DNA of 64,000 bases from Spironucleus salmonicida (taxonomy: Eukaryota), in NCBI RefSeq assembly GCF_000497125.1, contig NC_090601.1, positions 62,001 through 126,000 on the forward strand, in the 5' to 3' direction. The notes under the pieces are model-generated. The model made no database searches. It had not been told where the DNA came from and worked only from the letters and a program-made list of their open reading frames with translations. Each line of letters opens with the position of its first letter. Positions within the stretch are counted from its first letter, which is position 1. This document shows positions 23,689 to 63,100 of this stretch, in pieces. The translations under genes and the position numbers were made by a program.

Positions 23689-23850
23689 TTTGAAATTAAG
23701 AAATATTGGTTTTAAAGATATAATAATGATATAAATTTTAATTTTTTTGATTATTAACCTGCTGATTAAGAGGGTTTTGGGATTCGGGGGCTGCACGCAG
23801 TCAGTATGTTTCTTTGACTTAAATAGCATTATAAAATATTAACAGTTATA

Positions 23851-24780
23851 TCATATCTACCATCCAGGTATTTTCATCGCTTTATCCAAAACTTCGCCAG
23901 CATTAACTGGTTTAAATGCTGCCAGCGCTTAATTGATATCGTAAAATATAATTTGACGTTTTTCAAAATAGCACAATTCAGTGTAGCCAGCCTAAATGAT
24001 ATTTTTAATCACCATTCTCATGTTTCTTCCAACTTCAGCTGCAAAATGTGCATCACTTCCCAATGCAATGGGAATTCCATATTCAAACGCTTTCACAATA
24101 TATTTCTAACACGGTAACGTTAGCCCAACTCCAGGATATTACGAGCCTCCAGTGTTTACCTCGATTGCGATTGGATCTAAGCCTAATTACGTGCGTTCCT
24201 CATTGTATAAAGATAGATTTTTGAGTGCTAAAAATACTCTTTAATTTATAGTATTATTATTAAAGTTCTACTTACACCATTCTTCGCCTAGTAGTGGTCT
24301 ATAAAAATCCATATGAGACATAATATTGAAATAGCCAGATCTAAATGCATTTTCCCATTCATCATAATAGTTCAGAACAAACTATTCCTACGTTTAAAAC
24401 ATTAGATACTTACCTACATTATAATAGTGTAAGGATCCTAATAAATAATCAAATTCATCTGTCATGTTTACAAATTATTCAGTCTTCTTGGGATCTTCAG
24501 GGTTCCAATCGACTTCCATACCTAACAAAATCTAAAGTTATGGATAGTGCTCTATTGAAAATTATTTTTCTTACTTGTATAAATTTAAAAAGGTTTAAAA
24601 ATCTGAGAACGGCATTCTATAGTCTGGGGTTACGTCATCATTAACAAATGGATTATGACAGCAAAAAGCGTAAGCTTTATATTATAACGCATCAGCCATA
24701 GCATGAAATAATCTTGGCATGACCATCTCAGCATGGCCACATAAATAGGTATGTGAATGACAATCAACAATATGTCTCAT
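23851..24780 (-). CDS. PHP-family phosphoesterase (HisJ/histidinol-phosphatase-like, bacterial type)
   Basis: 309 aa; VDCHSHTYLCGHA, CCHNP, GMEVDW, LLGSLH, MSHMD, IEVNTGG, IALGSDAH. Confidence 0.88.
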
Positions 24781-37656: not shown

Positions 37657-38871
37657 TCATTATATCCATTTCCATTGAATATCAACAGCATCAAGAGCAT
37701 CACAAACCCATTCTGGAACTTTCTATTATTCAGTAAACCAATTACGTAAAAAAATAGAGACAAATTCATCTAATTTCTCCGTTTATATAGATTCTCTAAC
37801 TTAACTCATTAAATTTAACAAATAATAAACATTATGGGCACTAACCAATTATCCACCGACACTTTCACCTTCTTTAAATAGAATATTTAACCTTGCTTTA
37901 GTAAATCCGCTAGAGCAAGCTTCACACCCACAACCCTCTTCGATAACAGTAAAATCATTGCAATAAGCTTCTCTAGTTAAATATAATTCTCCTTTACCTG
38001 TAAGTGCTGTACCAAAGCGACCTGTCCTAGTAGCATATACGCAATCAAACATATCAACACCTAAGCATGAACAAGTTACTAAATCAACAGGAAAACCCAC
38101 GCCCATAAGATAGCGTGGTAAATCTTGCGGAAGATTTATTGTACAATAAAGAACTGTTCTCCAAAAGTCATCTTTAGCCTCACCACCAGAGAGTCCACCA
38201 ATTGCAATTCCTCCGAATGATTCTTTCCTTTCAGTAATATCTCTAATACATTAGTCTCTATTTCCATTTTTAGTACAATCCAAATGACCTTGACAAATAG
38301 CAAATAATGCTTAATTCTAGGTAGTATGTGCAGAAATGCATCTGTCTAACCATCTAGTAGTCCTTAGTGATGCCTCAGCTATACGCTCTGCATCATTAAC
38401 CTTATCTAACTAAGCAGACACAACATCATCTAAGCACATTATAACATCTGTTCCAATCGCTTGCTATGTCTTAATAGAAATTTCAGGGGTTAATAACTCA
38501 GAAAATCCAGTAACTGGGGATATAAAAGTTACGCCCTCTTCGGTCAATTTCGACAGTTTAAGCAATGATACCATTTAAAATCCTCCAGAATCAGTTAAAA
38601 AGTTATTCGGCCAACGCATCAAATTATGTAAGCCACCGGTTTATTCTAAAACTGGGATACCTGGCCTCTAATTTAAGAAGTAAGTATTAGATAACATAAT
38701 TTTAGGGTTAAGAGTCTTAATTTGTTCGGTAGTGAACCCCTTTAATGTTCCTTATGTCCCAACTGGCATATAAACTGGAGTTGCTATATCAGCATGAGCT
38801 AAGGTAAATGTTCCAAGCCTAGCATGTTTATATTTCTTATGCTAAGTATATTTTGCTGGCCCACGTCCCAT
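37657..38871 (-). CDS. QTRT1: Queuine tRNA-ribosyltransferase catalytic subunit
   Basis: 404 aa; TPVYMPVGTQGTLKG, TDSGGFQMVSL, AIGGLSGGE, PRYLMGVG, DMFDCVYATR, CGCEAC...HN. Confidence 0.95.
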
Positions 38872-38929
38872 TTAAAGAACAAGTTATATAATATTTATTA
38901 TATAATTATATAATTATTTTAACCTTTCC

Positions 38930-39727
38930 TCACTTCGCTAACCACTTTTCTCTTTTCTTCCCACTGTATTTACTCATTGGTCTAATATCATCTCCCTTTT
39001 CGGCAGCCTGGACTTTCTTGCGCAAAATCCACTCTCTACTATGTTTGTCCATTTTGGTGCTTAAAACGCGTCCGCCATTACCTAAACGCTTGGTTTTGAT
39101 ATCACTAACTTTTCCAATTCGTTTATCGCCAGTAATTCCTCCGGTAAGGACCAAAAAAATCTTTTTCGCCTTTGCGGAATGAGGAAAATCGACTATCAAC
39201 TCGCCTGCAAACCCAGCATCTCTAGATGCATCTAGAATAAGCTTCAGCTGCTTATCATCCTCTGGATAGAATTAGAAGACTGCTCGTGCACCTGGTTTCA
39301 GACACGAAAATAAACTAGAAAATAGACATAATAGTCGTTTATACGGATTTTCAGTATTGTCATTAGAGTAACAGAGCCATTAGAGGCATGAAATTGAAAA
39401 ACAACCATCGAACTGACCAGGCTAGAAAGGTAAGCCTTTACCAGCATCTAGAAGTAACAGCGAGTCGGATTCATTGAGCTTAAGCATGTCCATCGAAATA
39501 TCAAGTGCAATTGTGAGATATCCTTATTCATTTGCGTAATTTGTTGAAATTCCACTTCCAGCTCCAATCTCCAATAATAATGCTGGTGCTTCCATAGATA
39601 GAAGCTCTAACGCCCTGTCTGTGAGCTGCAATTGGACATCATTAATTCTGGTATTATCGTTGTATTGTGCAGCCGTCTCAGCGTTGTAATACATATCAGC
39701 AGGTCCTGTATTCTCTGGTCTTACCAT
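38930..39727 (-). CDS. BUD23: 18S rRNA m7G methyltransferase Bud23/WBSCR22
   Basis: 265 aa; MVRPE...[52 protein letters not shown]. Confidence 0.95.
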
Positions 39728-39760
39728 ATTAAAGTGGCTAATGGAGTGGAATTAAAAATA

Positions 39761-42133
39761 TCAGTCAACGTTGGTTAACCATCCTTGCTTTAAATTTTTA
39801 AGCTTTTCAACAATATCAGGGTTCTGAGAAGCAAGCTGCTACGCCACATTTTATCCTTGAATTGGCTTGTAGATAAAATTCTTTTAAATTGAAGAGTCTT
39901 AAATTTTAGTCTTATAAGCATCATATTCAAGCTGTAACTTTCTAATCTAATCGTCTTTATCTCTTGATAAAGTGTGCTTGTCCTACTTCAACTTTTATAT
40001 TAATGTAGATAAGTCTTTAATTTGCAGTAACATCCTTTCATTCGTTTGATCAGAAATCGTGATTCTTTAAATTAATAACTAAATTTCCTATTCTTTCTGT
40101 TATATCTATGAACCAGACTATTCGTGCAAAAACACGTACTCCAAATTCTGTTTTTCTAATGTCATTATTGTATACTTAATCTGTTCAAGCTGCTACTAGG
40201 AATCTACAAAACGATCGTTTGAAAGCTCCAATCGCTATTTAAATAACTGGCATTGCGACTGCTCATTTCGCAATGAAATCACCATCTGTTTAAGCTTGGT
40301 TATCTCGATATCCTACTTTTATGTCAAAGATAGATTTTCGTTGCCAGTCAGGTCCTTTTCACCATCGTTTCCATCGCTAAATCCTCTCAGCCTGTTGTTG
40401 TCCGCCGTTAAAGTAAGAATCTTTTAGTCGTACTCTTCGACTTCCTGTTCGTTCTGGAACGTCAGCTGCTAAATCTGCTATTCCATGAGGATTTTTTTGG
40501 ATTTTTCTTCTGAAAGCAGATTTTGGAATTCGACGCATTTTTCGTCTTTAAGTATGATTTTCTGCTGTATTTACTCCATTTGAGTCTGCATTTACTTGTA
40601 GTTCAAAATTTCTTCTTTCATCTCCAAATTTTCTTGCAGAAGTAGCTCGATTTCAGCGTCATTTTGCTTCATTTGAGAGGTCTCTGCCGACTCATTTTGT
40701 TGTGCCGGAAGAGCTGCAAGTTTCGTCTCAAGATCTTTGATATCTGCCTCGTAATTTTACTTCATCAAATATTTGGCCTCGTTAGCCTTCTCTAGCTGAG
40801 CTATCAATGATGCGATTCTAATATTCGCATCAGAACCGATTTCATGTTATATCATTTCTGTCTGCAACTCTCCGTTTTCGTCAGATATTGGATTTTACTG
40901 GCCGCTCATACAAAGTAAAAGGTCATCCTATGTTGGAATTTTGACTTCAGATTCTCCAAATTTCTCTTTATACCAGTCAATAGTCTTAGATTGCATGTCA
41001 ATGAATTATTTTTAGCCTAATACTTGTTATTATAGTTTTTCAATAATTGCCATTAACTCTTTGACGGATTTTGTAGCGTTTACTTTAACTTTATTCTTAA
41101 TGCATTTAGCTCGCTTTCCAAAATCTAGAGTTGAAATAGTTTCATCTCTATTGAAAGGATGTGGGGAAACGGCAATTAATAATGTGGTTTTAGAATTTCC
41201 TCCTAAGGATTCTTATAATAATCTTGTGAGTTTTGAATCTCTAAATGGGATATGGCCTTTAAGTTTACCTTCAGATGCTTCAGCTAAGGCTTTGATACAA
41301 AGGCCTAATGCAGTAAGCGATCCATTAATATTTTTAGCTTCTTCAAGTCTTTAACCAACCACTCCTGTTTTACCAATCTTTTCAGATCCTGCTAAATCAA
41401 CTAAACACATTTTTCCTTCTTATTTCGAATTGTCTGTTTTATTATGTTAAGATACATTAATGATAATAACAGTATGTGAACGAGATGATACTGCGTTCAT
41501 AGAAGTTGCAGACACCGCACGATTTGAATCACCAATATTGATGACGGTGATAATATCTTCAGGGCAACAAACTTATGTTTCTACTGCATTTTCAACATAA
41601 ATTCCTCTATCAGGTGATTCTCTTATCTTCAAATTTTCATGATCAGGTCCTCTAGCTAATAAATCATTGACTTACTCATTATAAATTTCTAAGAAAGAAC
41701 AACGAATGGAGTATTCGATATCGTTATTATCAGAATGTAATATATGGTTAAATATATCTTCAGCAGATCTGGGTATAATTCCCTTTCCTTCATCATCATT
41801 GACATCTGAACCAAACATTGAAAATGATTTTCCAGCACCAGTTTGCCCATATGATAAAATAGTACCATTATATCCCTACAAAATTTACTTAACTGTATCA
41901 TTAGCTGCCATATTATACACATCTCTTTATGATACTCCAGGTGGATAAACTCTATCTAGACAATATTTTTTAGTTCCCAAACCACCTTCTAATTCTATCT
42001 CAAGATTTTGCTCATCTATAAAATTGCATACCATCTATTCAGGATCTTTACCAGCTTCAATAAACTCTTTTCTCTCACGGCTATTTATAGGTCTAAATCT
42101 ACAAAGTACTCTGACACTTGCTGCTTCTGCCAT
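39761..42133 (-). CDS. Kinesin-1 heavy chain
   Basis: 790 aa; [50 protein letters not shown]; coiled-coil stalk; tail IYKPIQG resembles the IAK motif. Confidence 0.9.
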
Positions 42134-44858: not shown

Positions 44859-45281
44859 ATGAATTCCACAACTGTTGCAATTATTGGAGCTAAAAATACA
44901 GGAAAATCTTCGCTTGCTACTCGCCTCGCCTATAGTAAATGTAAAGAAATTGAATCTGGGATCTCTGATATTTATAACAGAAAACTGGTTAGTGGAATTT
45001 TAGAAGTTCTTGATGGCTCAAATGATTTTAATGAGAATTCAGATTTTGTTAAAAAGACTTAGTATTTAATAGTCTGTTTTTCTAACACTGAAGAGACTAC
45101 AGAGATGCTTAATCTGGCTTTTGCTTAACGAGGGGGTGAAAAGTTAAAATAATGTTGGGTATTAGGATTACTGAATTAGGTCTAAGGGGCATTTGATAGA
45201 TTTGATGCTATTTGTTTAGATGCCGATGCCAAAAATGGAGTTGGACTTAACTCAATTTATACATAGCTTGGAATTAAGTGA
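44859..45281 (+). CDS. Highly divergent Ras-superfamily small GTPase-like protein
   Basis: 140 aa; VAIIGAKNTGKSSL (G1), ISDIY, LEVLDG, DAKNGVGLNSIY (G5-like). Confidence 0.7.
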
Positions 45282-45347
45282 TAATACTTAGTTAATTTAA
45301 ACCAGATATTGTATTCATAATATCGTTGATTTTAGTAATAATAATTA

Positions 45348-45716
45348 ATTTCAGCTTCCTCGAGGCGGGTGCAGTGTAATGACGAGCTTAGTGATCCAGA
45401 AGATGCGGCGATGACCGTACAAAAAAGCTAGCTGACAGTAAAATCTCAGTTGGATATAAAGTAATCTCATCCATAGTAAACAGAGTTGTAATAGTTAAAA
45501 TAGGATAAGGAGGATATGTAAAAGCTTATTGACTCATTAAAACTAGTATTAATTAAAATGAGTGTTAATATTGATTCTCCAAAAATCTAGTAATACCTTA
45601 CGAAAAATCATGGCGTGGTGCTTATTCCAAGTACGATTGATGATTTGGAAGCTAGCGACCGAGAAATTTTGCATGGTTCCTTAAGGAGCAGTGCTATGAA
45701 TACCAGCCTTTGGTGA
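45348..45716 (+). pseudogene. 5'-truncated duplicate of the 48274-49611 coiled-coil gene
   Basis: Carries only the last ~122 codons; an internal ATG at 45411 could give 101 aa. Confidence 0.75.
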
Positions 45717-45738
45717 GAGTGATATTATCCATTCCTAA

Positions 45739-46020
45739 ATGCAGGTTACTACTTTGGATTAGAATCTTGCTGATATTGAAATCATCCGTCGCAAGAACAA
45801 GGAGTTTTAATCCTAATAGCATAAGATATCGGAAACACTTACTCTTTAATAAGAGCTTATTGAGGAAATCACTCATAATATAGGATCTACAAAAGATCGC
45901 ATGCGAGAAGTTACCTAAAATGCAGACCGGGCTCTATAAAAAATAGGAGGCCTTAAAGGAGCACTAGGTGGTATGGGTACGATATTATGTCTTGGGGTGG
46001 TTTGGTTAATTTTCGGGTGA
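45739..46020 (+). CDS. Minimal Qc-SNARE (copy 1)
   Basis: 93 aa; KISETLTLQQELIEEITHNIGSTKDRMREV plus C-terminal TM MGTILCLGVVWLIFG. Confidence 0.7.
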
Positions 46021-46039
46021 GTGATTGCCACTTCAAAAT

Positions 46040-46933
46040 ATGGATACTAAAAGTTTTCTTCGTAATGGAATGGTACTTATGCGAGAATGCGAATATGACG
46101 AGGCTTGTGAATGCTTCATACCAGCATGTATCTAGATATGCAGCTTGATACCGTGTTTGATTTAGATCCCAGAGCTATAAATTTATATTGAGTCTACAGC
46201 ATCAGAAATATAGCATATTTAGGCAGCATTTAACTGCTTATCTATATTAGCATTCGCATAGTATAAGGCCGGTCATTATAGCACCGCATCTATTGTCTCT
46301 ACCTAACTAATTCGCCTATTATCTCGCCACGGAGTATTATCACATCATGCGTTGTTTAATAATATTATTTACGCCAGGAGTAATGCGCCTATGTCCGCCG
46401 TTTCTCATTGTCGTCGCTTATAAATGGACTCATCTACTCGTGCGCGAGCCAGCTACGAGCTTGGTATGTGTTACTTAGATAGTGATGAAGATCTTGCCAT
46501 GGAATAATTTTAATTATCTAACTCTTTAGGATATTAAATGGCCGAACATGCAATTTGCGAATTACTGCATAAGAAAAATCTACTTGATGCTAAGAGAGCA
46601 CGTGTAAACGCTAAGCATTGTCCGGGAAAGCGTTTATTTGTTAAAGTTCTGCTACATCTTAATTTATAGGAGCCTGCCTCAAAAGAATGCAGACATATGT
46701 TAACATGTGACAATAACTAATGCGCTAGATTTTAGAATATTTTAAATTTTGAGTTTGATAGTAGTATATAACGCAAAGTTACTTCCACCGAATTATCAGA
46801 ATCCTAATTAGGAATTTTGGCATCACGTTATAATAGTAAACTTATTGAGTTAATTGATGTAAACACGTTTAAAAATAAAAGAATAGATGAGAGGGTTGCA
46901 ACTGACATTGTTACCAAAATCTTAAAGTAGTGA
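46040..46933 (+). CDS. TPR-like helical repeat protein (complete copy)
   Basis: 297 aa; GMVLMRECEYDEACECF, LAFAQYKAGHYSTA, ASYELGMCYL; extends from the left arm into the spacer. Confidence 0.7.
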
Positions 46934-46941
46934 CTAATAAT

Positions 46942-47121
46942 TCACTCGTCAAATAAAAGCCAGTCAACATTATCATTAACAAACATTTCCAATAGTGCTG
47001 GTTACTTAACAATATCATCTGGATACCGAGAAAATGAATTTGTACGAGGTGTACGTGACTATAAATGATTAGGTGATGGAGTATTAGGACAGCAGAGTTT
47101 AGTATTTGTAGGTGTTTTCAT
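46942..47121 (-). CDS. Small TP/SP-rich protein
   Basis: 59 aa MKTPTNTKLCCPNTPSP...DWLLFDE*; C-rich motif upstream and GAGTGA stop context. Confidence 0.55.
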
Positions 47122-47950
47122 TTTATAATTTGGAGCGGGGAGAATGAGTATTTAAAAAATTAATCGTGAGAATACTTTCTAATTTATAATATTTTTTTTA
47201 GAACAATAATTACGATGATTTATAATATATCATTTATATACTAAATTAATATGTTAACTAATATTTTATTTATAATTATTTATATTATAACATATGTCTG
47301 CATTCTTTTGAGGCAGGCTCCTATAAATTAAGATGTAGCAGAACTTTAACAAATAAACGCTTTCCCGGACAATGCTTAGCGTTTACACGTGCTCTCTTAG
47401 CATCAAGTAGATTTTTCTTATGCAGTAATTCGCAAATTGCATGTTCGGCCATTTAATATCCTAAAGAGTTAGATAATTAAAATTATTCCATGGCAAGATC
47501 TTCATCACTATCTAAGTAACACATACCAAGCTCGTAGCTGGCTCGCGCACGAGTAGATGAGTCCATTTATAAGCGACGACAATGAGAAACGGCGGACATA
47601 GGCGCATTACTCCTGGCGTAAATAATATTATTAAACAACGCATGATGTGATAATACTCCGTGGCGAGATAATAGGCGAATTAGTTAGGTAGAGACAATAG
47701 ATGCGGTGCTATAATGACCGGCCTTATACTATGCGAATGCTAATATAGATAAGCAGTTAAATGCTGCCTAAATATGCTATATTTCTGATGCTGTAGACTC
47801 AATATAAATTTATAGCTCTGGGATCTAAATCAAACACGGTATCAAGCTGCATATCTAGATACATGCTGGTATGAAGCATTCACAAGCCTCGTCATATTCG
47901 CATTCTCGCATAAGTACCATTCCATTACGAAGAAAACTTTTAGTATCCAT
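47015..47950 (-). pseudogene. Chimeric TPR gene copy (duplicated 5' ~220 codons plus read-through into AT-rich spacer)
   Basis: Same start and sequence as the 46040 copy until 47288, then open through non-genic sequence to TGA at 47017-47015. Confidence 0.6.
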
Positions 47951-48642
47951 ATTTTGAAGTGGCAATCACTCACCCGAAAATTAACCAAACCACCCCAAGA
48001 CATAATATCGTACCCATACCACCTAGTGCTCCTTTAAGGCCTCCTATTTTTTATAGAGCCCGGTCTGCATTTTAGGTAACTTCTCGCATGCGATCTTTTG
48101 TAGATCCTATATTATGAGTGATTTCCTCAATAAGCTCTTATTAAAGAGTAAGTGTTTCCGATATCTTATGCTATTAGGATTAAAACTCCTTGTTCTTGCG
48201 ACGGATGATTTCAATATCAGCAAGATTCTAATCCAAAGTAGTAACCTGCATTTAGGAATGGATAATATCACTCTCACCAAAGGCTGGTATTCATAGCACT
48301 GCTCCTTAAGGAACCATGCAAAATTTCTCGGTCGCTAGCTTCCAAATCATCAATCGTACTTGGAATAAGCACCACGCCATGATTTTTCGTAAGGTATTAC
48401 TAGATTTTTGGAGAATCAATATTAACACTCATTTTAATTAATACTAGTTTTAATGAGTCAATAAGCTTTTACATATCCTCCTTATCCTATTTTAACTATT
48501 ACAACTCTGTTTACTATGGATGAGATTACTTTATATCCAACTGAGATTTTACTGTCAGCTAGCTTTTTTGTACGGTCATCGCCGCATCTTCTGGATCACT
48601 AAGCTCGTCATTACACTGCACCCGCCTCGAGGAAGCTGAAAT
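47288..48642 (-). repeat. Right arm of the 1355-bp inverted duplication
   Basis: Reverse complement of 45348-46702; supplied ORFs 45694-45876(-) and 48114-48296(+) are identical. Confidence 0.95.
47970..48251 (-). CDS. Minimal Qc-SNARE (copy 2)
   Basis: Mirror of 45739-46020. Confidence 0.7.
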
Positions 48643-49611
48643 AACATTCTACTATTTTTCATCTTTAATATCTTTCTAAGCTTTGGGTTTTGAAATATTT
48701 AATTAAACTTAATTAGATAAATTTGCCGATAATTTATTTTCTATAATAGATTTCGGCTGAGCAGCTAACACTTAAATTTCTATAAATTATTGTTATAGCT
48801 ACTTTAACTCATCTTCTGCTTATAGTACTAAATTTTCATTTTCTTGTCTAAGTAATACAATTTCCTCTTTATATTAAATTATCTCTTCTTATAAGTTTTA
48901 TACCAATTAACCTGTTTATTTACTTTATTTTAACTGAGTAATTTCTTTTTATAAAGCTTAATTAGTATTTTTTAACAAATTAACTTCTTATCTATGCTTA
49001 TTTTATGCCGTTTATACCTCAATTTAAATATCTTCAATAAGTTATTATTGTTTTTAGCTACTTTCAATCTCTGCCTGTAATAAGTAATTTGCCTCATTTA
49101 ATTAATTTTGTAAATCATCAATTTTCCTTTTATCAATATAACTTACATTAGAATTATTTATATTTTATTTAGGCGTAGGTTATGGAGGTCTTTATAATTA
49201 ATTTGTAATTGAAGATGTCATCTACTCTGACTTTTTTGATTCCACCAACGACTAAATTCCTTAGATCAGTATTTAAAGATTTCCTAATCCGTCAATAACT
49301 GCTTGTCCTTACTTTAATACTTAACTTAATGCTTATACTGCAGACCCACCATTTCCATCATCTTAAGCCTAAATTAATAAAGACTGAACAACTTCAGAAA
49401 GATCCTAAGCCTCTGAATGATTTCTATTAATATGATCAGAGATAAGAGTCACAGCTTCTTAAATTTTAGCAACATCTTTTGGAACTGCGGATTACAATTT
49501 TTAACGTAAAATTGGCAACTATTTTTAAGCTTTCTAAACAAATTGTGATAATGATTAGTGACGAAGTGATATCTCTTTTATTGTTGGTTACATTGTTTAA
49601 AGCAAACTCAT
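48274..49611 (-). CDS. Coiled-coil protein (complete copy)
   Basis: 445 aa MSLLQTMQPTIKE...AMNTSLW*; 3' end lies in the right repeat arm. Confidence 0.7.
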
Positions 49612-50224: not shown

Positions 50225-51115
50225 TCAAATTGCTTCGTTAATAAATGTATTTCCGATTAAAAATTAAACTATAATACTCAAATGGGCCTAAACATACTCA
50301 GCAGATTTATAAAATCCTTAGTGTATATACACCACTTCATCGTTGACATAATAACTGATTGGATCTATGTCTATATCAGCAATGCTATCTTAAATTAAAT
50401 CCCATGTTCCCCTAATAACCACATAAAGTATTTACTTCTCGATAAACACCTAGAATACCGGTTTATATGGTTTCCCGATTGAGTTCTTAATAACTACGTT
50501 TGCGTTGATGTCTCTTTTTTCATAAACCTCGTTGCTTAAAATACATAGTTTCAAGTCTAGTTTTAAATCATCCTGGTTGATGTGTTATGGAATTTCTGAG
50601 ACCTCTGCAAAGTCAGTACTCTAAACTTTTAACAATATGTCTGGTTGGCTCTTATTAATGGCTGTTATTCTAGACAACTAGCTCACAGCCTGTGCGAAAT
50701 TATTAATAGACTCGTTCGTATTATAGTCCTCACTTGTAAGATAGCTTCGCTGAAACTCTATTGCCTAATTGAGGAAGTGATGAGCAAGTGCTTGCTGCTA
50801 CTGCGAATCTGCATAATATCCTGCGTCCTTTAGCAGCTGAATGCGCGTCTAGCCTTCGAAGGCCAAAGGGAAGAAAGATATTAACCGTGAAAGGGTCTAA
50901 ATATCTGTTTGCATAAATTTTAAGAAGAAGTAAGTGTGGAAAATGATGCCACTATCCGAATAAGTCAGGTACATCGCTTGGATGAACGATATTAATTTCT
51001 CTGGGTTAAAACCCTCAACCAGCACCTTTATACTTCTTAAATCGCTGCTTTTTTTGATGTGACGATGTATGGTTGCAAGAAAGTGAGGCTTGGGTGCCTG
51101 GCACCGAATGTTCAT
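50225..51115 (-). pseudogene. Class-3 lipase-like gene ending before the catalytic GxSxG
   Basis: 296 aa; LYVVIRGTWDLIQDSIADIDIDP...YIHQGFYKSAEYV, then about 20 non-conserved residues and TGA. Confidence 0.7.
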
Positions 51116-51168
51116 TTATAACGTATTGTGCATAAAGATAGTATAATATAGTATATATTGAAATTCCG

Positions 51169-54100
51169 TCACTGAGTTTAACATAATAATGCAGTACCTC
51201 TCATGGCCCACTGAGCGGGCCTCTTCTCGGATCTAAGCTTAACAGCGAAGATAAAGTTCTACCCGGTACGCATTGGAGTCTTGTAAACAGGGCATTCGTA
51301 CAGCATGATGCCTGATTTATCTTTTACAGGCGCGGTGACGACATCACTGGTACTTTCAGTTGCTTCTACAAGCAGAACAGGAAGAGGCGCAAACATCTAC
51401 TTGGACGCTGCATCAATAATAATTTCTTTCTTAGGCTCCCACTGGGCGCCTTCGAGGAATAGTCCATGGATATAAACAGCACCAGACATTTTAGGCTTAT
51501 TTGTCTGGGCTTATTTTTCATCCTTGAACTTCATGACCGACGTCTGGATCATAACCTTGTCTAAAGACCAAGGTGCACCATTAGTAGTGTTGCTACGAGT
51601 AATTTCTTGCTTTACAGATGTAAGGAACCCGTTAGGGTTAAAGAAACCAGTCAACCAGAAAGAAGCAGGCTACTCCTTCATTAACCAGTTAGAATACTAT
51701 GTACATCTGGCCGAAACATCTGATAACCATTATCCTAGCGTTGGAGAAAGCCAGGATATATTTAACCAGCGTGCAGGCACTCTAGCATCGAAGATAGCAT
51801 CCAATGCATCTTATAAATGTTCAGTCATAATAATAGAACCCGCCATAGCTTGCTACAAATCAATAAGTGTGCTGCGAATCATGCTCAGCACAGCTTACAT
51901 TCTTTCGATTTCCTATCCCAAGAAAACAGTCAGGGCCTTAGGAGATGACGAATCTCCATTGAGGGCTTTTAAGTATTATGGAACCTAGTGCTTAAGATCA
52001 TACTTAGGTGGCAGTTTGGTTAAAATATCTTTGGCTTACTTGAGAACTACATCCTCTCTAGACCCTCCTGCTTTAGAACCGCCTGCATCTTTAGGTTAAA
52101 TACTAAGAATAGTTCCTAAAACTGCAGTTGTTTCAGCTTACCTAAATGTAATTTCTGCATTAGGGTGCATCATTAAAGCTTATGGCTTGTCAATCATAGG
52201 CAAATTATCAACAAATTTTCTGATATCATTAATATTAGGTTAAGCTCCAAAAGTTGGCATTTTATAAATTGGAGCACAGAATGAATAGTTAGGTTCGAGG
52301 ACTTATCCTGAAACCCATTCAGCAGTATAAACATTCATTAACTTTCTGTCAAAATCGTCCGTAATACGTCCACCGTAGTGCACTTCTGCTATCATGTAAC
52401 AGATAGTTTTCCATGAAATTTGTTAGTTCTTTCTTGGGTCGAGAGAATACAAATATGACTGCAGGAACTAGATAGAGGCATTAAAGTCATGCTAACCAAA
52501 CTCATACTTAATGCACCAGCCAAGAGGGCCGTACTTCTTTCGCTCAATAATGGTTGAATGCAAATACGCGATTGAATATATAAGAGGAAGCCATTGTGGC
52601 TTGTCAACGGACTCGACAAGGTCCTACGTCATTTGATTAAATGTTCTCTTTAATCCAGCACGAAGGCCTGACGGAGGGTCGTTTGTAAGCTTAATCGACT
52701 TTTACAATAAGCCAATCGGGAATTTCTCGCTTCTTTCCGTAGTGAGAATAAGTCTGAAATCTGGATGAGGGCCCTACTTGGGGTTGAGTGCAGCGAAAAT
52801 ACCCCCAGTTCCCTAATTAGTGCCGATAGCAGGATCCAAGTCCTTGATGTCTTTCTTATCACGACTATCGCCATCATTGTCCCCTCCAAGGGCATTAATA
52901 TAGGCATATCTTTCCCTAACATCTAATACCATGTCGTCAACCTCGGCCATAAACTTGATAGCAAGATGGGAATTGTTGATCATTGCCCATCCACCGTTAG
53001 TGATGCAGTCAGCGACCAGGCGTCGTGCCGCAGGTTCTTATCCTTATCCCATGGAAATCGACTTCAATTCGATCTTTCTCTTCTTAGCAAACATTTCTAA
53101 TTGGCCGGTAGGGTCAGAACCCAATGAAAGCAAGAAACAAACTGGCATGCACTGGTTCGTCTCATTGATCAAAATGTCATCATAATCCGCCACTACAGGC
53201 TCAACAAACTCTTTCCCATCTTCTTTCATGCTCGGATCCTTAGAAGCAAAGCATGATTAAATATATGCAGACGCAGCTAACATTGTCCTATCTTCACGCA
53301 AACATCTAATTAATAATAGTTTTTAGAATTCATTAAGTCTGCCTTCGTATTCTTATGGTAATTTCGCTATTTCAATAGCTTCTTCGTTGTAATAGTTTTT
53401 CCATTCTGACTCATTTTCAGATATCTACTGTGGTAATTGTGCAAATGCAGATAATGCAGAAAGAGCAACAACATTAAGCCATGAATTATCAGCAACGAAT
53501 TAAGGCTTAGACTTTATATTCGATAAATCTAAAGCTGCACCCCCACGAATAAATACAAAAAATTCTTGCTAAGAAATTTTATCCTTCTTCATATCTATTT
53601 TCAAGCACAAATTCAATACAAACAACAATTTATCGCGTTCATATAGACCACGCATAACATACTTGAATAGTTTAAGCGTCATGTATGAAATGATCTGCTG
53701 AATTCTTCTTGCGGCTATATTATTAGGAGGTGCTTCTAAAATAGAAAGATCGAATAGATCCAAGAATTACTTGAGTGATGTTTAATACATGTTATTGACT
53801 AGCGTCATCTCGGTAATAAGGAAATATATAATAGCTCCGCGTGTGGCAACTATAACATACTCTTCACGGGCTTCGTTAATTCTCTTTTCTGTTTCAGCTG
53901 CATTCGCTAGTTTTTCCTTAACTTCTTCGGTCGTTTACTTAGTTTTGTTGAGAACCTCAACTAAAGAGGAGTCGTCAAGTAAATTTCCAGTCGTGTTGCT
54001 TAAACGCTCTAACAAATCTCCCTCCAACTGCAAGGCGATTTTCTTATTAGAGTTAACCTCTTCAAGCAATTAGCGTCTCTGTTCTTCTAGTTCTTTGCGT

Positions 54101-57100
54101 TCAATATTAACTGTTCTGGACAACAATTATGATTCTAAACCACCAAATGTTACTGTAAAATCGATAATAGAGGTTTTAGCATAAGTTTCAGGGCTATATT
54201 TAGGGTTAGGGAGCTTAGTTGTGATGAACAACTTGAAGTTTTCATCGATTTACTTCGTTTAATCGCCAATTTTTACCTCCTTTCTTGTTCCAGTAATAAT
54301 ATATTGTTTTTCTAAGATGGGGTCTAATACTGGATCGATCTCTTCCTCAACATCTTCGATGAGCAGTGGTAAACCGTTTTCAACGGCATTCTCTAAAATC
54401 ATTCTAAACCTCTTGTTATTCAGAGTGGTAACCTGAATATCTTGCTTGTACATGTTCTTGATCCAGGCAGCAGCCTGATTCTGGGGATCAACCATCAACG
54501 GATACCTTGATGATGAGCTTACAATAAGACCATTCTGGGTGGAAAGATCGTCAGTGGGCAGACCCTAAAGTCTCCACTCACCTATCTATGCCTCTGTCGT
54601 CAGGAACTAAATAATTTCGTTCTCGATGTTCTTAGAATATGGGATCTTCCTCTCCACCATATCCTTCAACCATACTTGACTTAGCAGCATGGTCCTATAT
54701 TATTGGTTGAATGGCCCTGCATAGCTTTAGAATGCAGCTGCTAAAGAGCAGTCTCCGACCAGACGTATGATGGCATCGTCTAGTTCCTTCGCCTGTATTC
54801 CCCATCTCTTTCTCTCACCAGACAGCCCGTTGATTAGTGCCGAAGCAGCGTTCAACCGCTTCTGCGTCAGATCGGCTTCGTCTTGGAGAGCTTGCTTTTC
54901 CGCATTAGCCTTATTGAATACCTCTTCGAGGACATTAAGCGATTTTTGCTTATCGTCTAGTTCACCTTACGCCTTCTTTAACTTATCCATAGCTACTTTG
55001 AAGACTGCCTCCATTTCACGCACAAATCTACGCTTAGGTTCAACTTCCAATGCTATAAAATGATAATCACGCATTGCAATAACCCATGAAAACAAACCAG
55101 CCACGTCACTAAAAGATTTCTACGCATTCTCAAACTTGAAATCAGGTTATTCTATATATGGAAGTAAAAGTTCGCATGTTTCATCAGTAATTGAATCTTT
55201 ATCAAAAGCTTAAAGTCGTTTAAGGAAGTTATTTTGCATAACATTTAGTGATTATCCCCATGATGGTAGACAGCCTCGAACAAGTGCTTTTTCAGGATCA
55301 TATACTAACTTTTCCATCTTTTCATTGAAAAGCACTAAGACAGTGTCAAAGATCTTTTAAATAATATAAGGTGGTTTACCAAGCTTCTTAACATTATTAA
55401 TAGCATTGGCTGTGATAGAATTTAGAGCTGACTCGGCTTTTTCTAGTAATGGCATTGCAGCAGCAAGACCTTGCTCAGCTACTTCCTTCTAGGCATTAAT
55501 TTCGTCTGCCTAGGCCATACATGCGTCAGCATCCTTTTGTACAACAGCCTTCACTTTCTCTGCTTCGTTTTTCTTGATGGTAATATCTTTCATCATTTCA
55601 TCGGTCTTGGCCTGTGCTACAGCTAGTTCTTTCTCTTTCTACTCTAAGTTGATCCTCATCGTTGCTACGTCATCTCCTGCTTATTAAAGGATATCCAAGC
55701 CTTTTTTAAGACGGTTGTTCTATGATGACAGGTCATTAACCTTTTTAGTGTAGAGCTGCTTAAATGAGGATAGGAACGAAAGATATGACTTGGGGGTCAC
55801 GTAAGTCTGTCTTCTGAATTAATTAAAATATTATTATGTAATAGTACTCATACTAGAGTGTATGTTCGCAATAAACTGAACTAGACTTGGGACAGTTTAG
55901 TCATTGTTAACTTTAATATCAAATCCTTCGCAAAGCTCGCTTGCTGCTACCTATTCTAGGGCTTCCCTTGACCAAGACTGGAACCAGTCAGTGGTACAAC
56001 CTGAGACTAGACCTGGGAACTTTCTAGATCTGGTTCTAAACTTATCGCCTACAGGTGAGAAGCATAGGATAATGTGCAAATTGGCCTTGTTGCGGTTGAT
56101 GAAGAAGTTCCAAAGGTTTTCGTTGGTATCTGGCATACGAGCGTTCCATTTCTTAAAAATAGGTCTAATATCATTAATGATACCTTCAATTTCATCCTTG
56201 GGGAACAGAGCAGGAATTTCACCTGCAGTAAGTATATTATTGATTTTTTCTAAAAATAACTCCTACTTGATGTCGTTATCGGTAAAAATAAAAGAACATC
56301 CTCGCCCGGTTAACCCAACCTATTTATAAAGCTTTCTAAGGTCCTCTTCTAAATTGCTTATATTGTAACTCCTAGACATAACCAATTAGAATAAATCATA
56401 ATCTGCAATATGAGTTGCCATTCTCGCGCAAGATTATTTCCCGGAACCACCTACACCGACTAGCAGAGCATGTCCACCAGGAGTTCTAATAATTCTAGAT
56501 ATTCTAAGAATATGATTAATACAAGAGTCGAACATAACTAACTTGAGCTAGAATTTACGGTTCTTATCGTTGTGGTCCTTCATATACATATTAAGTCTAT
56601 TGATCATTACTTCTTTATCATACACAGGCTCATAAATTTTTGGAACAACAATTTCCTGGTCATCTGGCACATCATCAGGGGCATCTCTCATAAAATCAGC
56701 GATATAGATATACTTATTATCTCCTCCCTATTGAACATAGTTCTGTGCTTCCTATGACAATTACTCATTAAGCTCTTCTTGTGCAACTACGTACAGTTAG
56801 TTGCTGAACCAGTTGATATCTTGCTCTGTTGTAAATTTATCAGGAAGAACTCTGCAGCACTCATTTGCCCAAAGATGAACCAATTATTTGGAGTTGGTGA
56901 TAACATCATTCTCTGTGTTTATGAATCCCTAAGTAATTTTGCTCAAGTCGCGCAGGTTGAATACATAATGGAACTTAGCAGGGGTCGGAAGCATCTTAAT
57001 TTTAGTAGCCTACCAGAGCTTTCTGGTTACTGCTACCAGCTTGTTGGCCGTTGTTGCAACTTCCTCACTGAACCCTCTGTCGATAGAATAATGGCCCTTA

Positions 57101-60100
57101 ATGATAGTGCCAAAGATTACATCAAGTTGATCTGGGGCAGGAAGATTGATGTTAAAAGTGCAATAGTGTGACTTGAGTCTATCTGGTATGTCATTTCTAC
57201 CACCACCTGGAATTGGCATAGCGCTGATAAAGGTAAAATCTTAAAAGCTGTGGAATTCTCCAGGCTTATCAAGCGCGTATAAGCCCCTCTCCTCAATAAT
57301 CTGACGGGTAAGCTCGTTTGTTGGCTGGTCCGTCCATTCATTGATAAGAGGAATATTAACTTCATCAATGAAAACGATGCCTTTCTTTCCGGCAACGGGG
57401 CCATAGCTAGTACCCATTCTTTTTTCAACGAAAGCTTCAATATTGCTCTGCAGGATACCTCCGGTAGTGGCTGATGAAAAGTTGACATTTCTGATAGCAA
57501 ATTTCTCTTTGTCCTACTCTCCTAGGAACCTAAATATATCTTTTGTCTTTCCTGAACCAGCTTCACCAGTGAAAAGTATATTAAACTAAGATCTATTTAG
57601 CTTCTAAAGAAGATAGTTAATTGTTGTATTATCTACGGTCGGAATAAGAATTTCGCCAAAAGGAATTGGCTATGGAGGAGGATACGTGTATGAAGGAACA
57701 ATATCAGTCCACTTTTACCATTGACCAGAGTCATTTATGAAATAGTTGTAAATCTGGTCTTGAGTATTCTCTAGCGTAGGATAGTCTATTTGCGCATTCT
57801 TAGCAGCCTGATTATCATATAAAAACTTTTATAGAATCTTTTTATCGTCTAAATCTAAGACAGCGCCAAATGACCACATGATAGCAAACAAAATTATCTT
57901 CTTGAAAGCCATAGGATTAATCTTTCCAATAATCTGCGATGCATTCTCGGCGATACATTGCAATTGTGCTTATTGAGGATTGCAAAAACCCTCCGCAATA
58001 ACAAATTATGATGAACTAATAGCTTCCGCTAAAACTTCACCATTATTCTATTTGTCTTCCATGTTAGCCAGCTTGCTCTCGACACCGCTTCCATCATAGA
58101 TAAGGGCGGTAATAATATTTAGAAGTTATCTTATCAATTACAGTGGTGGAACATTGAACAGAGGTTTAACCTCGAGATCGGTAAATTGATATAAAGCATC
58201 CAGTAATCCAGATGAATCTAACATCTAGGTCATGATGTTGACTTACTCGCCTTGCCAGCCCTTAGTCCACGAAATGTAGAATGGTTTCCATCCATATGCT
58301 TTAAACCCAGACATATAGATCATACCAGCTCTAGAAACTGTAGCCGGAGAAGCGTTGGCCAATGAGTCAATTTCCAAAATAAGCTTCAGATTCTTAGACA
58401 TTGGGATTCTATCAGAATTTGCTAGTGTTAATGTCTTGTTGTCATCCATGACTGTGTTGAGATTTTCAATCCAAACTGCATCGACAGGTCCGTTTAGAGT
58501 CAGCATGATGAAATGTTCGGCCTTGACTGCCTTTCTCCACAGAGCTGAAAAAATACCGTCCGTCCAGTCTCCAGTTGAAGCATCTAGCCTACCGAACATT
58601 TGAGGGGCTGTGATAGCTTTGGGGTTCATTTTAACAATCTGGAACTTCTGGCCAGTTATATTTTGCTGACATTTGGCCAATGTGTGAAGGGTGCACGATT
58701 TTCCAGCTAAAGTAGGCCCAAGAAGCATGATAGAGTGGCGCACGTTATATGTTTCGTAAAATTAAATAACTGACTTAACCCAGTCTGGTTACCTTTGTAT
58801 ATTGAGCTGCTGTGTCACAGTAACAATCATATTTTCTAGAGTCTCGTATTTATTTTCAGGAGGTTTGATACCTGGAAACAGGTCAGTTGTCAAAGATTCG
58901 AAGAGAGGGATATCAGGGGCGACCAACTTAGATCTGTTCATGTCCCGTAAAACACGAAGCAAGATGAATGACTCAGTTAACGTTTTATCGTGAGCATTAT
59001 CTCTTCTTTATTCTCCACATGTACGCAGAACGGACAGGATGTTTCTTAAACCAAAATCATAATGGCGCTACTAGGATAATTGCTATTCGCACAATTGATA
59101 AAGAATGTAAAACTTTTTCGCTAGCATCTTGGATTCTGAGAACCCAGCTGCTGCTAACTTAACATCCATGATAATTTGGCGATCTGGTACCATCATGGCA
59201 ACGGAACGGAATAATGCCTTCAGATTTTCTAGCAATTCTTAACGACCAGCATAACCTGGGTTCATGGTAATGAAATATGCAGCAGAGGTAAGCAATGACA
59301 CCATGCAACCGTCTGTGTAAAGGAACATCTTCTTTTTCTCCTTAATAGCAGATAATACACAGAAGATCTATTGTGCGGCCACTGACATAACATCAAGTTC
59401 AATACGATTGAATTCATCAAAATCTCCAAAACAACCGCACTAAGCAATACCTCTATAAATTTTACCGAGACCCTTATAATCCATCTGATCAGAACAATTG
59501 AACACAACTACGAACATACCTACTGCCTTTCCCATATCCTTTACAGTTTCGGTTTTTCCAGTACCAGCTGGTCCGGCTGGGGCTCCGCCTAAGCACATAC
59601 CTATGGCCTGGGCCAATGTTATATAACATCTATCAGTTAAAGGAGTAACAACTAATCTTTCGTTAACACCTAAATATTCGTAGTTATATGTAAAATCAAT
59701 ATCAGTAATCTACAACCTGCATGTGTCTAGTTCTGTGTTCCAATAAAATCTTGTTTATTTTAACCAGTCAAATTCAGTCGCCGAACGAACCTTAGCTGCT
59801 ATTAAATCATTAAAAATATCACGTTGATGTACATGAATAGTGATTAATGTTTCTACGTTAGTTCTTTGTCTAGGAACCATTTCCTATTATTTAGTAATTT
59901 CAACTAACAGATCAAATACATCATTGTTCTTCTTAACAACATTCTCTAAAGCTCGCTTATCTGTTCTAGCAGTTCTAAAAGCTTATTCACACCACAAAGT
60001 CCAAATGATTTATAAACATAGCAAGGTAACTTAAGCAGGATACGCCTCGAAATATTCTTTTAGTAGATCCTTGTAATCAGGTCTACTTAAATCTTAAGCA

Positions 60101-63100
60101 GCCTAACGAACAATATCTTTAATAGATCGCTACATAACAGAAATTAAAGTATTCAACCAATCTTCAATTGGTCCTGAAGCAACCACTGGTACTGATAACA
60201 CAACCTTTTCTCCAGTTTTATCATTAAGAGCTATTATATTGTTTCTTTTGGATGTAGATTTATCAAAATCAACATGATAGACTGCGTCAAAAATAGATAA
60301 CAAATGTCCTTATATTTATTAAGGGTCTGATTACTAACCTAAAATTTCTAATAATACTGGATCAGATACGAAATAAAAGCGAGGGAATAAGTTACGCTTT
60401 TGTTCTAAATACCCTGACAGCGACTTTTGGCACTCTTCTAATTACTCTATGAGATGTGGTAAAAGTGATTTAAGCGTGTCATCCTGGGAAGTCATATAAA
60501 TAACTCCAGGGTTTAGATTGGCGCCGCCCATTATCTTTATCCAAGTCTTATCGATGTTTCCGAACCTTTTCGCCTCAGCTGGCAGCTGACGTGCGATATC
60601 TCCAGAACTGAAAACAGCCTCCAAATAAATCCAGTTCTACTAGACCTACAACCATAAACTGAGGGTTTCGTCAAGCGTCGATAAACGCTTAACCCACTAA
60701 AATATTTCATCTTTGAACGGCTTGTTATATCTGTTTGACTGAATAGAACTTAGGAGCATTTGAGAATCTTCCAATGCACTAATTAACTCAGACGTTTCTG
60801 CAGCATTGAGAATTACCTTGCCTCTTGACTTAAATTCGTCAAATACAAAGTTCGTGGATTTCCACTGGTCCCTAATTTAATTTACCTTAATCTCGATGTC
60901 AGTCTCTTTTGTTGCAGCATTGCAAATATCTTCAATATCTTCTGAATATTTAACCGGATCAGCAGATAATACATCAGAAAGCTTGAAAGTATCTGGATCA
61001 GATAATATTTTAAGCACTGATTCTGATTTAGTTTTTTCTGAAATCTCTTGCCAATGTCTAGGTTTCATTGCTGGATTCGACATGGCTTAAAACGTTGGGA
61101 GAATAAGATTAAAATCATCAATTTTTTACTTTAACTCAATAAAAGCATCCCAGTCTCTCATGTCTTTTGGTAAACGCATGCATCTGTTTTAGAAATCACC
61201 CATCTTGATTTATACCTCTTCAAAATTAAGATCAAACCATAACTTATCTGAATAACCATCTATAGTTGTAATAACATCCTAGTATAAAGTATATAATTAA
61301 TTTAATAACTTCAAATCTTTTTGCATCTTAACTAAATCTGGGTATTCAGTTATACTTAATCCAAAAAGACGTTCGCCTGTTGAATAAGTAAGCCATTTTC
61401 TTTCTATTTCTGAAAATTATTATTAAAACTCGCGCAATCTTATAACTGCACCTCTTGGTGGTATACCAGGTTCTCTAGGTCCCTTTGTATTCCACTATTC
61501 AGTGAAATTAGCTACAGTTCCTTAAAAATCAGAAACTTATGATACTAAATCCTCTTTTAACCCACCTTATAAATCTTTAAGATTATACTACATTATAATA
61601 GCCTGTTATTAAATAGTTTTAAGTCTATAATTTAATTAGTCTACTTATTCTACTTCTTCTACAGAAACCTTTATATCAAACTAATTCATAATTTGATATG
61701 AATACTCAATTGGTTAGACTTTATTATCAAAATCTGCTTCCAACTCTCTTAACTTTGTTAGAGCTGCCATTATTTTTCTTACATCATCCAAATCATTTAT
61801 TTAAACTGAAATTTAATTTTACACATCATTAATAGTATTTGTCAATATTGAAAGCTATAATTACGCAAAGTTATTTAGTTTTGCCGCATATTATGCCTTC
61901 CATGTTTATGCCTCATTTATCATGGATTGCTTAATGGATTCTGTTTTCATTAAAAATATTCCCTGTTCTATATAATCTGGAATTAAATCGACATGATCTC
62001 CAATATTATCATAAAAAGTTAATTTATCCACATATAGCGATAACTCTGGTTTATTCTCGATAAATTTTTTAAAGACTTCGTCTTTATCATTTATCCAAAG
62101 ATGTTTAAATGATGAGAAAATGTTTAACTACTAAGTAAGATGGAGCTCTAACGTAGAGAAATATTATTATAATGATAATACAAGTTTTAACATTTGTCTA
62201 GAACCTCCAATGTACTAAAACATTGAATTAGACACATCAAAAGATTATAAATCTTCTAAACGAGCAACCTACTAAGCTAATCCCTCATCCAGTTAAGATA
62301 GTACCTGTTATTGGTTTTCGTTGTTCCAAACTACTGGCGCAGTTTTCTTATTATTGACAGTCTCTTCATTCTCTGTGTTGTTGGAATATATTACTGTTTT
62401 GGTTGTTGAAAGATTTAAAAACAAATTATCAACCATATCTGATTTTTTAACTTCATAAATTGGTTTTATTGATGTCAATATATTTTAATAATATTTACCC
62501 TATGAGTTCCACTTAGGTATACGCTTTGTAGATGTTAATACTAATACAACTAACTCATTTAAAATAACTGATAATTTATCTTATGAAGGTATTAGCTATA
62601 TTTCAGGATAAACCAGTTCATAATCACAGGAAATAAGACTATCATAATCAAATTCTTGTGTTAAATGATTATTTGGATAACAACAAGGATCTATTCTAGA
62701 TATTCTTGCATGCAAAGATCTAAACGTTCTCTCAGTTGCCAAAAATACCGCAGCATGTACTCTATCATGCATTTTATTAATAAAATCTTTTATAGCTATC
62801 TTAATAACATATGCAGCGCCTTTTTTCTTCGATATATCCTCTTCTGTTTATTCTTCTTTATAATCAGGGTCAAAATAAGTTACAATCGTTGATAATACCA
62901 AATTATTAAGCATTTCTGCGTTTTAAGAATCAGACCTTACCAAATATCTTGAGACAATTTATGAAATTGCATCACAGGTACCAGCCGCAACAAAAGCAGA
63001 CCTTTTGAAAATAAACTCAGCCGACTATATTGTATGCGGCTTTGCTTTCTCTAAATATGTTTTATAATTTAAGGCATTAGAATATTTTTCTAAATAGTTA

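Follow-up and report, generated by a model that had tools for sequence, protein, structure and literature searches.

Spironucleus salmonicida is a protist parasite of fish and belongs to the diplomonads. The 64,000-nt stretch of its contig NC_090601.1 analyzed here (positions 62001-126000, referred to as the window; positions of repeats and genes are given in window coordinates unless the contig is named) harbors an inverted repeat composed of two identical 1355-nt arms, which flank a unique 585-nt spacer and end inside genes. The repeat is real and is present in two copies. It probably originated from a 1.9-kb inversion in which one breakpoint was duplicated, and on balance we favor a history in which this birth was followed by gene conversion between the arms, biased toward guanine and cytosine (GC), that kept the two arms identical. 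The mechanism of the breaks, the age of the repeat, the conversion and its bias are points that we infer. Taken alone, the locus illustrates two known processes cleanly and on a small scale, and many repeats of this kind are present on the contig.

The left arm (45348-46702, plus strand) is the exact reverse complement of the right arm (47288-48642, minus strand) at 1355 of 1355 positions (100%), and the spacer occupies 46703-47287 (plus strand). The layout is denoted A (left flank) - X (left arm) - S (spacer) - X' (right arm) - B (right flank). The GC content of the arm is 0.377, compared to 0.27 in the 1 kb to its left, 0.265 in the spacer and 0.255 in the 1 kb to its right. Homology ends abruptly at every edge, i.e., local alignment past the edges yielded no residual homology (scores of 23 and 22 compared to shuffled means of 22.3 and 21.7), and the idea of a longer and older duplication whose margins have decayed was rejected. 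Among the 25 inverted pairs in the window, the other 24 are only 30-45 nt long with 70-81% identity. A third copy of the arm was found neither by a DNA search of the genome assembly nor by a search with the SNARE-like protein that it encodes. A preliminary description of this DNA, made from the letters alone, had outlined a 1355-bp inverted duplication around a 585-bp spacer with sharp arm ends and no visible transposase; the exact arm identity, the loss of homology at all edges and the lack of a transposase match in the eight open reading frames (ORFs) scanned with Pfam bear this outline out.

Assembled contigs were compared for four of the eight sequencing runs that cover the stretch, i.e., the DNA runs X1 and X2 and the putative RNA runs X5 and X6, where the RNA nature is presumed and not on record. 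In X2, the left-flank contig ends at 45377 (depth 10), the spacer contig extends over 46673-47317 (9.05) and the right-flank contig starts at 48613 (8.6), while the arm is a single 1355-nt contig, 47288-48642, at a depth of 26. The corresponding depths in X1 are 150 (left flank), 152.8 (spacer), 143.4 (right flank) and 433.6 (arm). Thus, the arm depth is 2.6-3.0 times that of the unique flanks in these two runs, rather than half of it, and a neighboring two-copy direct repeat has a comparable depth of 450.1 (X1) and 21.7 (X2). The spacer is spanned by one contig in each DNA run, with 30 nt of arm at both sides; the unique contigs end 30 nt inside the arm, as contigs built from 31-mers do at a collapsed two-copy repeat. 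The DNA contigs of both runs hold words across all four junctions, including 45347/45348 and 47287/47288, at flank depth. A joint between flank A and the spacer end is not listed among the contigs, from which rare variants are dropped, and no arm variants are listed in the four runs.

An assembly artefact, i.e., a fold-back or a chimeric long read, would explain the perfect arm identity, and the support for the repeat comes from contigs rather than from long reads. Three points limit this support: the two DNA runs are from one sample, which is possibly the source of the window sequence; the DNA contigs reach 30 letters into the arm, which is below the 31-letter bar for bridging (as expected for 31-mers); and the arm depth is more than twofold, where library GC bias is a guess only and depth is not to be read as copy number. 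However, the two-copy contig pattern, with words over four junctions at flank depth and the elevated arm depth, is found in two separately assembled runs, the joint between flank A and the spacer end is not listed, and an assembler cannot create the step in codon composition described below. Furthermore, the 15 near-identical pairs on a surveyed part of the contig (NC_090601.1:45,000-1,006,000, i.e., 961 kb of the 14.5-Mb genome) differ by 0-76 mismatches. We consider an artefact very unlikely, to the point of being negligible, in agreement with the preliminary description. X2 contigs also display one-base deletions at 47192, 50073 and 50087 that are absent in X1; these sites are AT-rich and the deletions are possibly read errors.

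The genes were read with genetic code 6 (TAA and TAG encode Gln), which yields long uninterrupted ORFs in the window; the ORFs obtained with table 11 were rejected as meaningless. This code, together with the Hexamita inflata relative described below, identifies the organism as a hexamitine diplomonad. The gene layout that had been described for both arms is seen with this code. The left arm starts with a headless 3' piece of a coiled-coil gene, which from its first ATG is a 101-residue ORF (45411-45716, plus strand; P0007 in the protein collection), followed by a SNARE-like gene (copy 1, 45739-46020, plus strand; 93 residues with a coiled coil and a hydrophobic C-terminus) and a TPR-like gene (46040-46933, plus strand) of 297 residues, with 221 codons in the arm and 76 in the spacer. 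The tail of the latter has a coding score of +7.1 and ends in the stop context AGTGA, reported as a stop/poly(A) signal of S. salmonicida (PMC3916229). The right arm contains the complete coiled-coil gene (48274-49611, minus strand; 445 residues, with 323 codons outside the arm and 122 inside, and a compositional step at the arm edge), SNARE-like copy 2 (47970-48251, minus strand), which is identical to copy 1 and positioned tail-to-tail with it, and a second TPR-like ORF (47015-47950, minus strand). This last ORF had been described as tailless. It does lack the native tail, but it is not simply tailless because the 221 native codons continue into 90 spacer codons, which yields a 311-residue chimera (P0002) with a tail score of -7.6 and the stop context GATGA. 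Tail scores are from an amino-acid model trained on NC_090601.1.

None of the three genes has thus lost its last intact copy, and the likely effect of the locus is a second copy of the SNARE-like gene. The 101-residue piece and the 311-residue chimera are probably two inert by-products; their entries in the protein collection are gene calls and not proof of expression. The contigs of the putative RNA runs have zero cover at 45291-45347 and 47244-47287, i.e., at the novel junctions, a result of bin arithmetic that counts as no evidence. A further ORF, of 59 codons, is located in the spacer (46942-47121, minus strand) and was not listed in the preliminary description. It is possibly a small gene and has an AGTGA stop context and a neutral coding score of 0.4; it is overlapped by putative RNA contigs and its exact sequence is absent from the protein collection. 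In flank A, a small P-loop/Ras-like gene (44859-45281, plus strand; AGTGA stop context, weak GTPase matches under the cut-off) stops 66 nt before the left arm.

The family names that had been given to these genes are weak labels: the match of the SNARE-like protein to Pfam SNARE (E=0.14) and that of the TPR-like protein to Pfam TPR_2 (E=0.002) are both below the cut-off. The SNARE label is supported by a relative in Hexamita inflata, which is named t-SNARE by its source and is 28% identical over 81 residues; a PDB sequence search with this protein returned no credible match (best E=0.025). Homologs of the TPR-like protein among 649 candidates of similar length, and of coiled-coil residues 270-445 among 353 such candidates, were limited to the proteins of this locus, so that the native edges discussed next are without confirmation from relatives.

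The tail coding scores and the stop contexts indicate that the edges X/S and X'/B are native, while A/X and S/X' are new. The native edges are located on opposite arms, the inner edge X/S on the left arm and the outer edge X'/B on the right arm, which makes it possible to reconstruct the ancestral order. Judged from the continuity of the ORFs, the ancestor would have been A - reversed S - X' - B, i.e., flank B - coiled-coil - SNARE-like - TPR-like - small ORF - flank A. At the native edge of the TPR-like gene, the putative RNA contigs pass from the arm into the spacer. This arrangement agrees with the earlier suggestion of an inversion with a duplicated breakpoint. As in inversions ascribed to staggered breaks, an inverted duplication of non-repetitive sequence borders the inverted segment, and the breakpoints are free of transposons and dispersed repeats (two copies in the genome; no transposase in the scanned ORFs). 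One break would have been roughly blunt and would have fallen in AT-rich intergenic sequence beside the Ras-like gene, while the other would have had a stagger of about 1355 nt across the 3' end of the coiled-coil gene, the SNARE-like gene and the 5' part of the TPR-like gene. Fill-in and rejoining would then leave a 1940-nt block inverted, with the staggered part kept at both ends; a pair of template switches would be an equivalent route, indistinguishable here, to the same product. A point that weighs against this reconstruction is that no outgroup stands behind the ancestral order, which is taken from ORF continuity, or behind the direction of substitutions.

Flank A and the inner end of the arm have the 3-nt end TTA in common. 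The hexamer ATGTTA is found at both native edges, where a shared run of this length has a chance level of about 0.05, and sharing of this type recurs in only one of four other repeats. Motif sharing between native edges reached a P of about 0.05 and 0.04 in two of five repeats and nothing in the other three, and no such motif is claimed. The 10-nt palindrome ATGTTAACAT (46697-46706) at the native arm/spacer edge is suggestive only. In 14 of the 18 surveyed repeats defined below no ORF spans the lost junctions, and the match at this locus is trivial.

The same ancestral order would be obtained if the inverted copy had formed first, by a replication template switch, and the spacer had been flipped later by a crossover between the arms, in which case two isomers may persist. 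The contigs of X5 and X6 could be taken to point this way: each run has one contig that extends from flank B through the arm to the spacer start (joint 46703/47288), bridging both native edges with the flanks unphased, which is the path of the flipped or the ancestral form. However, the arm is collapsed in these contigs, so that the path does not require any flipped molecule. Common flips would have left both native edges on one arm in about half of the repeats, and the opposite-arm layout was found in all four of the 18 repeats that could be scored firmly (one-sided p of about 0.06 under free flipping; of two weak cases, one agrees and one disagrees). In a human Y palindrome, crossovers are described as rare relative to conversion (PMC3723533). 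The data hint that flips are rare, and we consider the route through a copy and a later flip quite improbable.

A flip would formally exchange the two isomers, as the preliminary description had proposed, and the TPR-like copy that carries the native tail would change place, but a function of such a flip is not supported. Both isomers hold the same ORFs (the complete coiled-coil and TPR-like genes, both SNARE-like genes and the chimera), and both TPR-like starts are preceded by an identical 692 nt. A tail swap therefore alters no product, and the locus is not a switch. Invertible DNA switches are composed of short recombination sites next to a site-specific recombinase, and their flipping alters an expressed product or a promoter. 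Here, each arm consists of 1355 nt of coding sequence, flipping changes neither an expressed product nor a promoter, and no recombinase family was matched in the eight scanned ORFs, to which this search was confined.

The argument for conversion rests on base composition. The higher GC noted earlier for the coiled-coil gene inside the arm is confirmed at synonymous third codon positions (GC3s), where 43/117 sites are G or C in the arm compared to 53/320 outside (p=1.4e-5), and at fourfold-degenerate sites (GC4; 15/41 compared to 12/95, p=0.002). The best nucleotide change-point in this gene is at 48638, which is 4 nt away from the edge of the arm (48642), and the codon interval, 304-328, includes the edge codon 323. 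For all arm codons, GC3s is 133/418 (0.32) compared to 247/1399 (0.18) in seven neighboring segments (p=1.8e-9), and each of the three arm segments is at 0.30-0.37. This excess amounts to about 59 of 418 synonymous sites (14%), while the divergence between the arms is below 0.22% (95% bound); if the excess arose after the duplication, it was fixed in both arms at this low divergence, which requires conversion. In the favored history, the two arms, located 585 nt apart, would have been held identical by non-crossover gene conversion, whose bias toward G/C would have lifted their synonymous GC, initially about 0.18, to the present value of about 0.32. The excess together with the step at the edge favors GC-biased conversion between the arms.

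A number of observations weigh against this interpretation, and the suggestion of ongoing conversion stands only in part. The TPR-like gene is without a step in the GC content of third codon positions (GC3) at the inner edge (63/212 compared to 20/76, i.e., 0.30 and 0.26; p=0.66), and read from an internal Met the difference is slightly negative (0.23 and 0.27). The tail of this gene is short and its GC3s is not significantly above that of the other neighbors (p=0.06). The excess is hence present at the outer edge and in the pooled codons and absent at the inner edge. The Gln codons show no shift toward CAA and CAG (3/25 compared to 10/64). Steps also occur in genes without a partner: a 3' GC3 step of at least 0.2 is found in eight of 114 single-copy genes (none of the 71 with a low-GC remainder) and a step this large at either end in 13 of 114, where single-copy refers to the surveyed 961 kb. 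In a kinesin gene located 3 kb to the left, GC3 increases from 0.14-0.21 to 0.34-0.50, although the genome assembly holds no partner of the risen part, and a second unpaired dynein has local GC3 bumps of up to 0.46.

These data suit a repeat that was born in the same manner but very recently and was never converted, with the duplicated piece already a mild GC island, e.g., the remnant of an earlier repeat. The lack of any difference over 1355 nt and the sharp edges without decayed margins are as expected in that case, as is the TPR-like gene without a step; unpaired GC3 islands are found at 12-13, 23-24 and 38.6-41 kb (the last without a partner in the genome), and among 215 locally single-copy genes the arm GC3s ranks no higher than the 77th percentile. 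In contrast, a pre-existing island would not be expected to change 4 nt from the arm edge, to extend over all three arm segments when the neighbors are at 0.18, or to recur as a link between GC3 and homogenized sequence in other repeats and in the dynein pair discussed below. We regard a recent birth without conversion as unlikely.

Selection offers another explanation for the identity, i.e., that the repeat was kept for the second SNARE-like copy or a new ORF and that identity reflects purifying selection. In its favor, the one gene that the arm contains in full has a Hexamita relative, and both the 101- and the 311-residue ORFs are in the protein collection. Selection on proteins, however, cannot preserve identity at synonymous sites, the tail of the chimera scores negative for coding and lacks AGTGA, and the collection entries do not demonstrate expression. 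Dosage selection may help to retain the repeat, but as an explanation of the locus selection is barely plausible, and we retain birth by inversion followed by biased conversion.

The survey places the locus in a wider context. With a clean two-copy inverted pair defined by arms of at least 500 nt and a spacer below 45 kb, 18 such pairs were found in the 961 kb, 15 of which are at least 99% identical. Near-identical local pairs (at least 1 kb, at least 99%) are inverted in 15 cases and direct in one. The overall GC3s is 0.60 in the arms, 0.30 in the spacers and 0.26 in other unique DNA. Of 36 edges, 12 are crossed by a scorable gene with 30 or more synonymous codons both inside and outside the arm, and at all 12 the GC3s is higher inside the arm (median +0.40); the TPR-like edge of our locus failed the score filter, and when it is counted in, which weighs against the interpretation, the tally is 12 of 13. 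Identity decreases with spacer length (rho -0.79, p=1e-4, n=18). Of the 18 pairs, none has a shorter spacer or a lower arm GC3s than our locus (0.34 by called genes; range up to 0.96), while spacer length and arm GC3s are not significantly related by rank (rho 0.32, p=0.2). Arm GC3s is 0.34-0.51 in the four pairs with spacers below 2 kb and 0.44-0.96 in the remaining 14 (post hoc p=0.012), a pattern that would fit a short life of repeats with short spacers. One other inverted pair, at NC_090601.1:275342, has 5348-nt arms with 99.96% identity and a GC of 0.60.

A link between GC3 and homogenization is also seen next door, in two full-length dynein heavy-chain paralogs of 4861 and 4862 codons. 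Over the first 1600 codons they are 56-77% identical (56-65% in the N-terminal thirds) with a GC3 of 0.18-0.25, while beyond codon 1600 the identity is 95-100% and the GC3 is 0.30-0.52; GC3 tracks identity (rho 0.82). Because these paralogs are old and full-length, their GC3 step is not set by where a duplication ended. A dynein without a partner in the surveyed stretch has a flat GC3 of 0.16-0.26.

Other features of the contig were recorded as well. The homogenized part of the dynein paralogs appears as an 11.7-kb direct repeat (window 50227-61917 and NC_090601.1:145272-156962) with 96.65% identity. A lipase-like ORF (50225-50914, minus strand) ends exactly at the edge of this repeat; it has no Pfam match and lacks the GHSQG motif, which is present in a 376-residue paralog at NC_090601.1:144832-145959 and is the basis of the lipase label. 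The unpaired GC3 island at about 38600-41000 comprises the 3' half of the kinesin gene and the next gene, without a partner in the genome assembly, and it is a possible ghost of a lost repeat arm. GC3 islands inside genes are also found at about 12000-13300 (up to 0.61) and 22900-24000 (up to 0.65), without partners in the surveyed 1 Mb. A short tandem repeat of about 3.1 kb forms the start of the contig (NC_090601.1:1-3113), followed at about 9000-42600 of the contig by a subtelomeric array of units of about 340 nt with 88-95% identity. A near-perfect 660-nt tandem array in a 2210-codon gene (NC_090601.1:197693-201956) has a GC3s of 0.48 compared to 0.17 outside.

The locus probably represents an early stage of a process that acts along the whole chromosome. 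More tentatively, and as a proposal that we consider doubtful, this process could be a cycle of birth and death in which staggered-break micro-inversions seed gene-cutting micro-palindromes, conversion raises their GC and loss of an arm leaves ghost GC islands, a cycle that would set the GC landscape of the genome. It would comprise about 19 micro-palindromes per Mb on the surveyed stretch, with 15 inverted to one direct among the near-identical local pairs; synonymous GC would climb in a clock-like manner from about 0.2 to above 0.9 under non-crossover conversion; and the locus would be the youngest visible stage, with the 3' half of the kinesin gene as an unpaired ghost island after arm loss. 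If so, a diplomonad would display strong GC-biased conversion via intrachromosomal pairing, and the GC3 of arms could be used to date rearrangements. The value of the locus is that of a test case, in which genes are interrupted at both edges, the ancestral order is still legible and the enrichment in GC is at its beginning. If conversion caused the step, the series of 18 repeats (arm GC3s 0.34-0.96, mostly above 99% identity) would supply a mechanism for the GC richness reported for duplicated regions in Spironucleus, and the identical inverted gene pairs known from Giardia could be interpreted anew. For such genomes, identical arms are not necessarily recent, codon usage inside arms is not necessarily linked to expression, and chimeric gene calls arise at arm edges.

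In S. salmonicida, duplicated regions are reported to comprise 19.2% of the genome, with a GC of 44.7% compared to 30.7%, and gene conversion has been suggested for the surface-protein families (PMC9509377); in the accessible part of that paper, orientation, spacer length, breakpoints within genes and GC-biased conversion at housekeeping genes are not treated. A literature search, with subscription papers and supplements largely outside its scope, found no description of gene-cutting, GC-converted inverted repeats in Spironucleus. In Giardia, which is also a diplomonad, identical inverted vsp gene pairs have ORFs 2190-3847 nt apart and are ascribed to recent duplication and transposition (PMC2996952, PMC7641422); the term gene conversion does not occur in the accessible text of PMC2996952. 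Our locus shares with these pairs the identical tail-to-tail ORFs (here 1949 nt apart) and the abruptly diverging flanks, but its genes are of a housekeeping type and the paired gene encodes a 93-residue SNARE-like protein rather than a cysteine-rich variant surface protein.

The staggered-break inversions of Drosophila (Ranz et al. 2007, PMC1885836), where the model includes one-sided duplication and duplications of up to about 1.9 kb are described, resemble the birth proposed here, i.e., genic, non-repetitive DNA is present in inverted copies at the ends of the inversion, at one breakpoint, over less than 1.9 kb and without a transposon. In contrast to the fly inversions, that of S. salmonicida is just 1.9 kb long with the copies 585 nt apart, its ancestral order is read from ORF continuity without confirmation by an outgroup, and its arms are 100% identical, whereas the fly duplicates are on average about 88% identical and decaying. 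The maintenance proposed here has its counterpart in the palindromes of sex chromosomes, for which GC-biased arm-to-arm conversion has been described (Hallast et al. 2013, PMC3723533; PMC8981503). Unlike these palindromes, the repeat has 1.4-kb arms with gene-cutting edges and is located on an ordinary protist chromosome arm, and the bias is not polarized here; in common with those of primates, it has an arm identity above 99.9% and a unique spacer, and it may also share with them a GC excess in the arms (seen here at the outer edge and in the pooled codons) and rare flips (PMC3723533).

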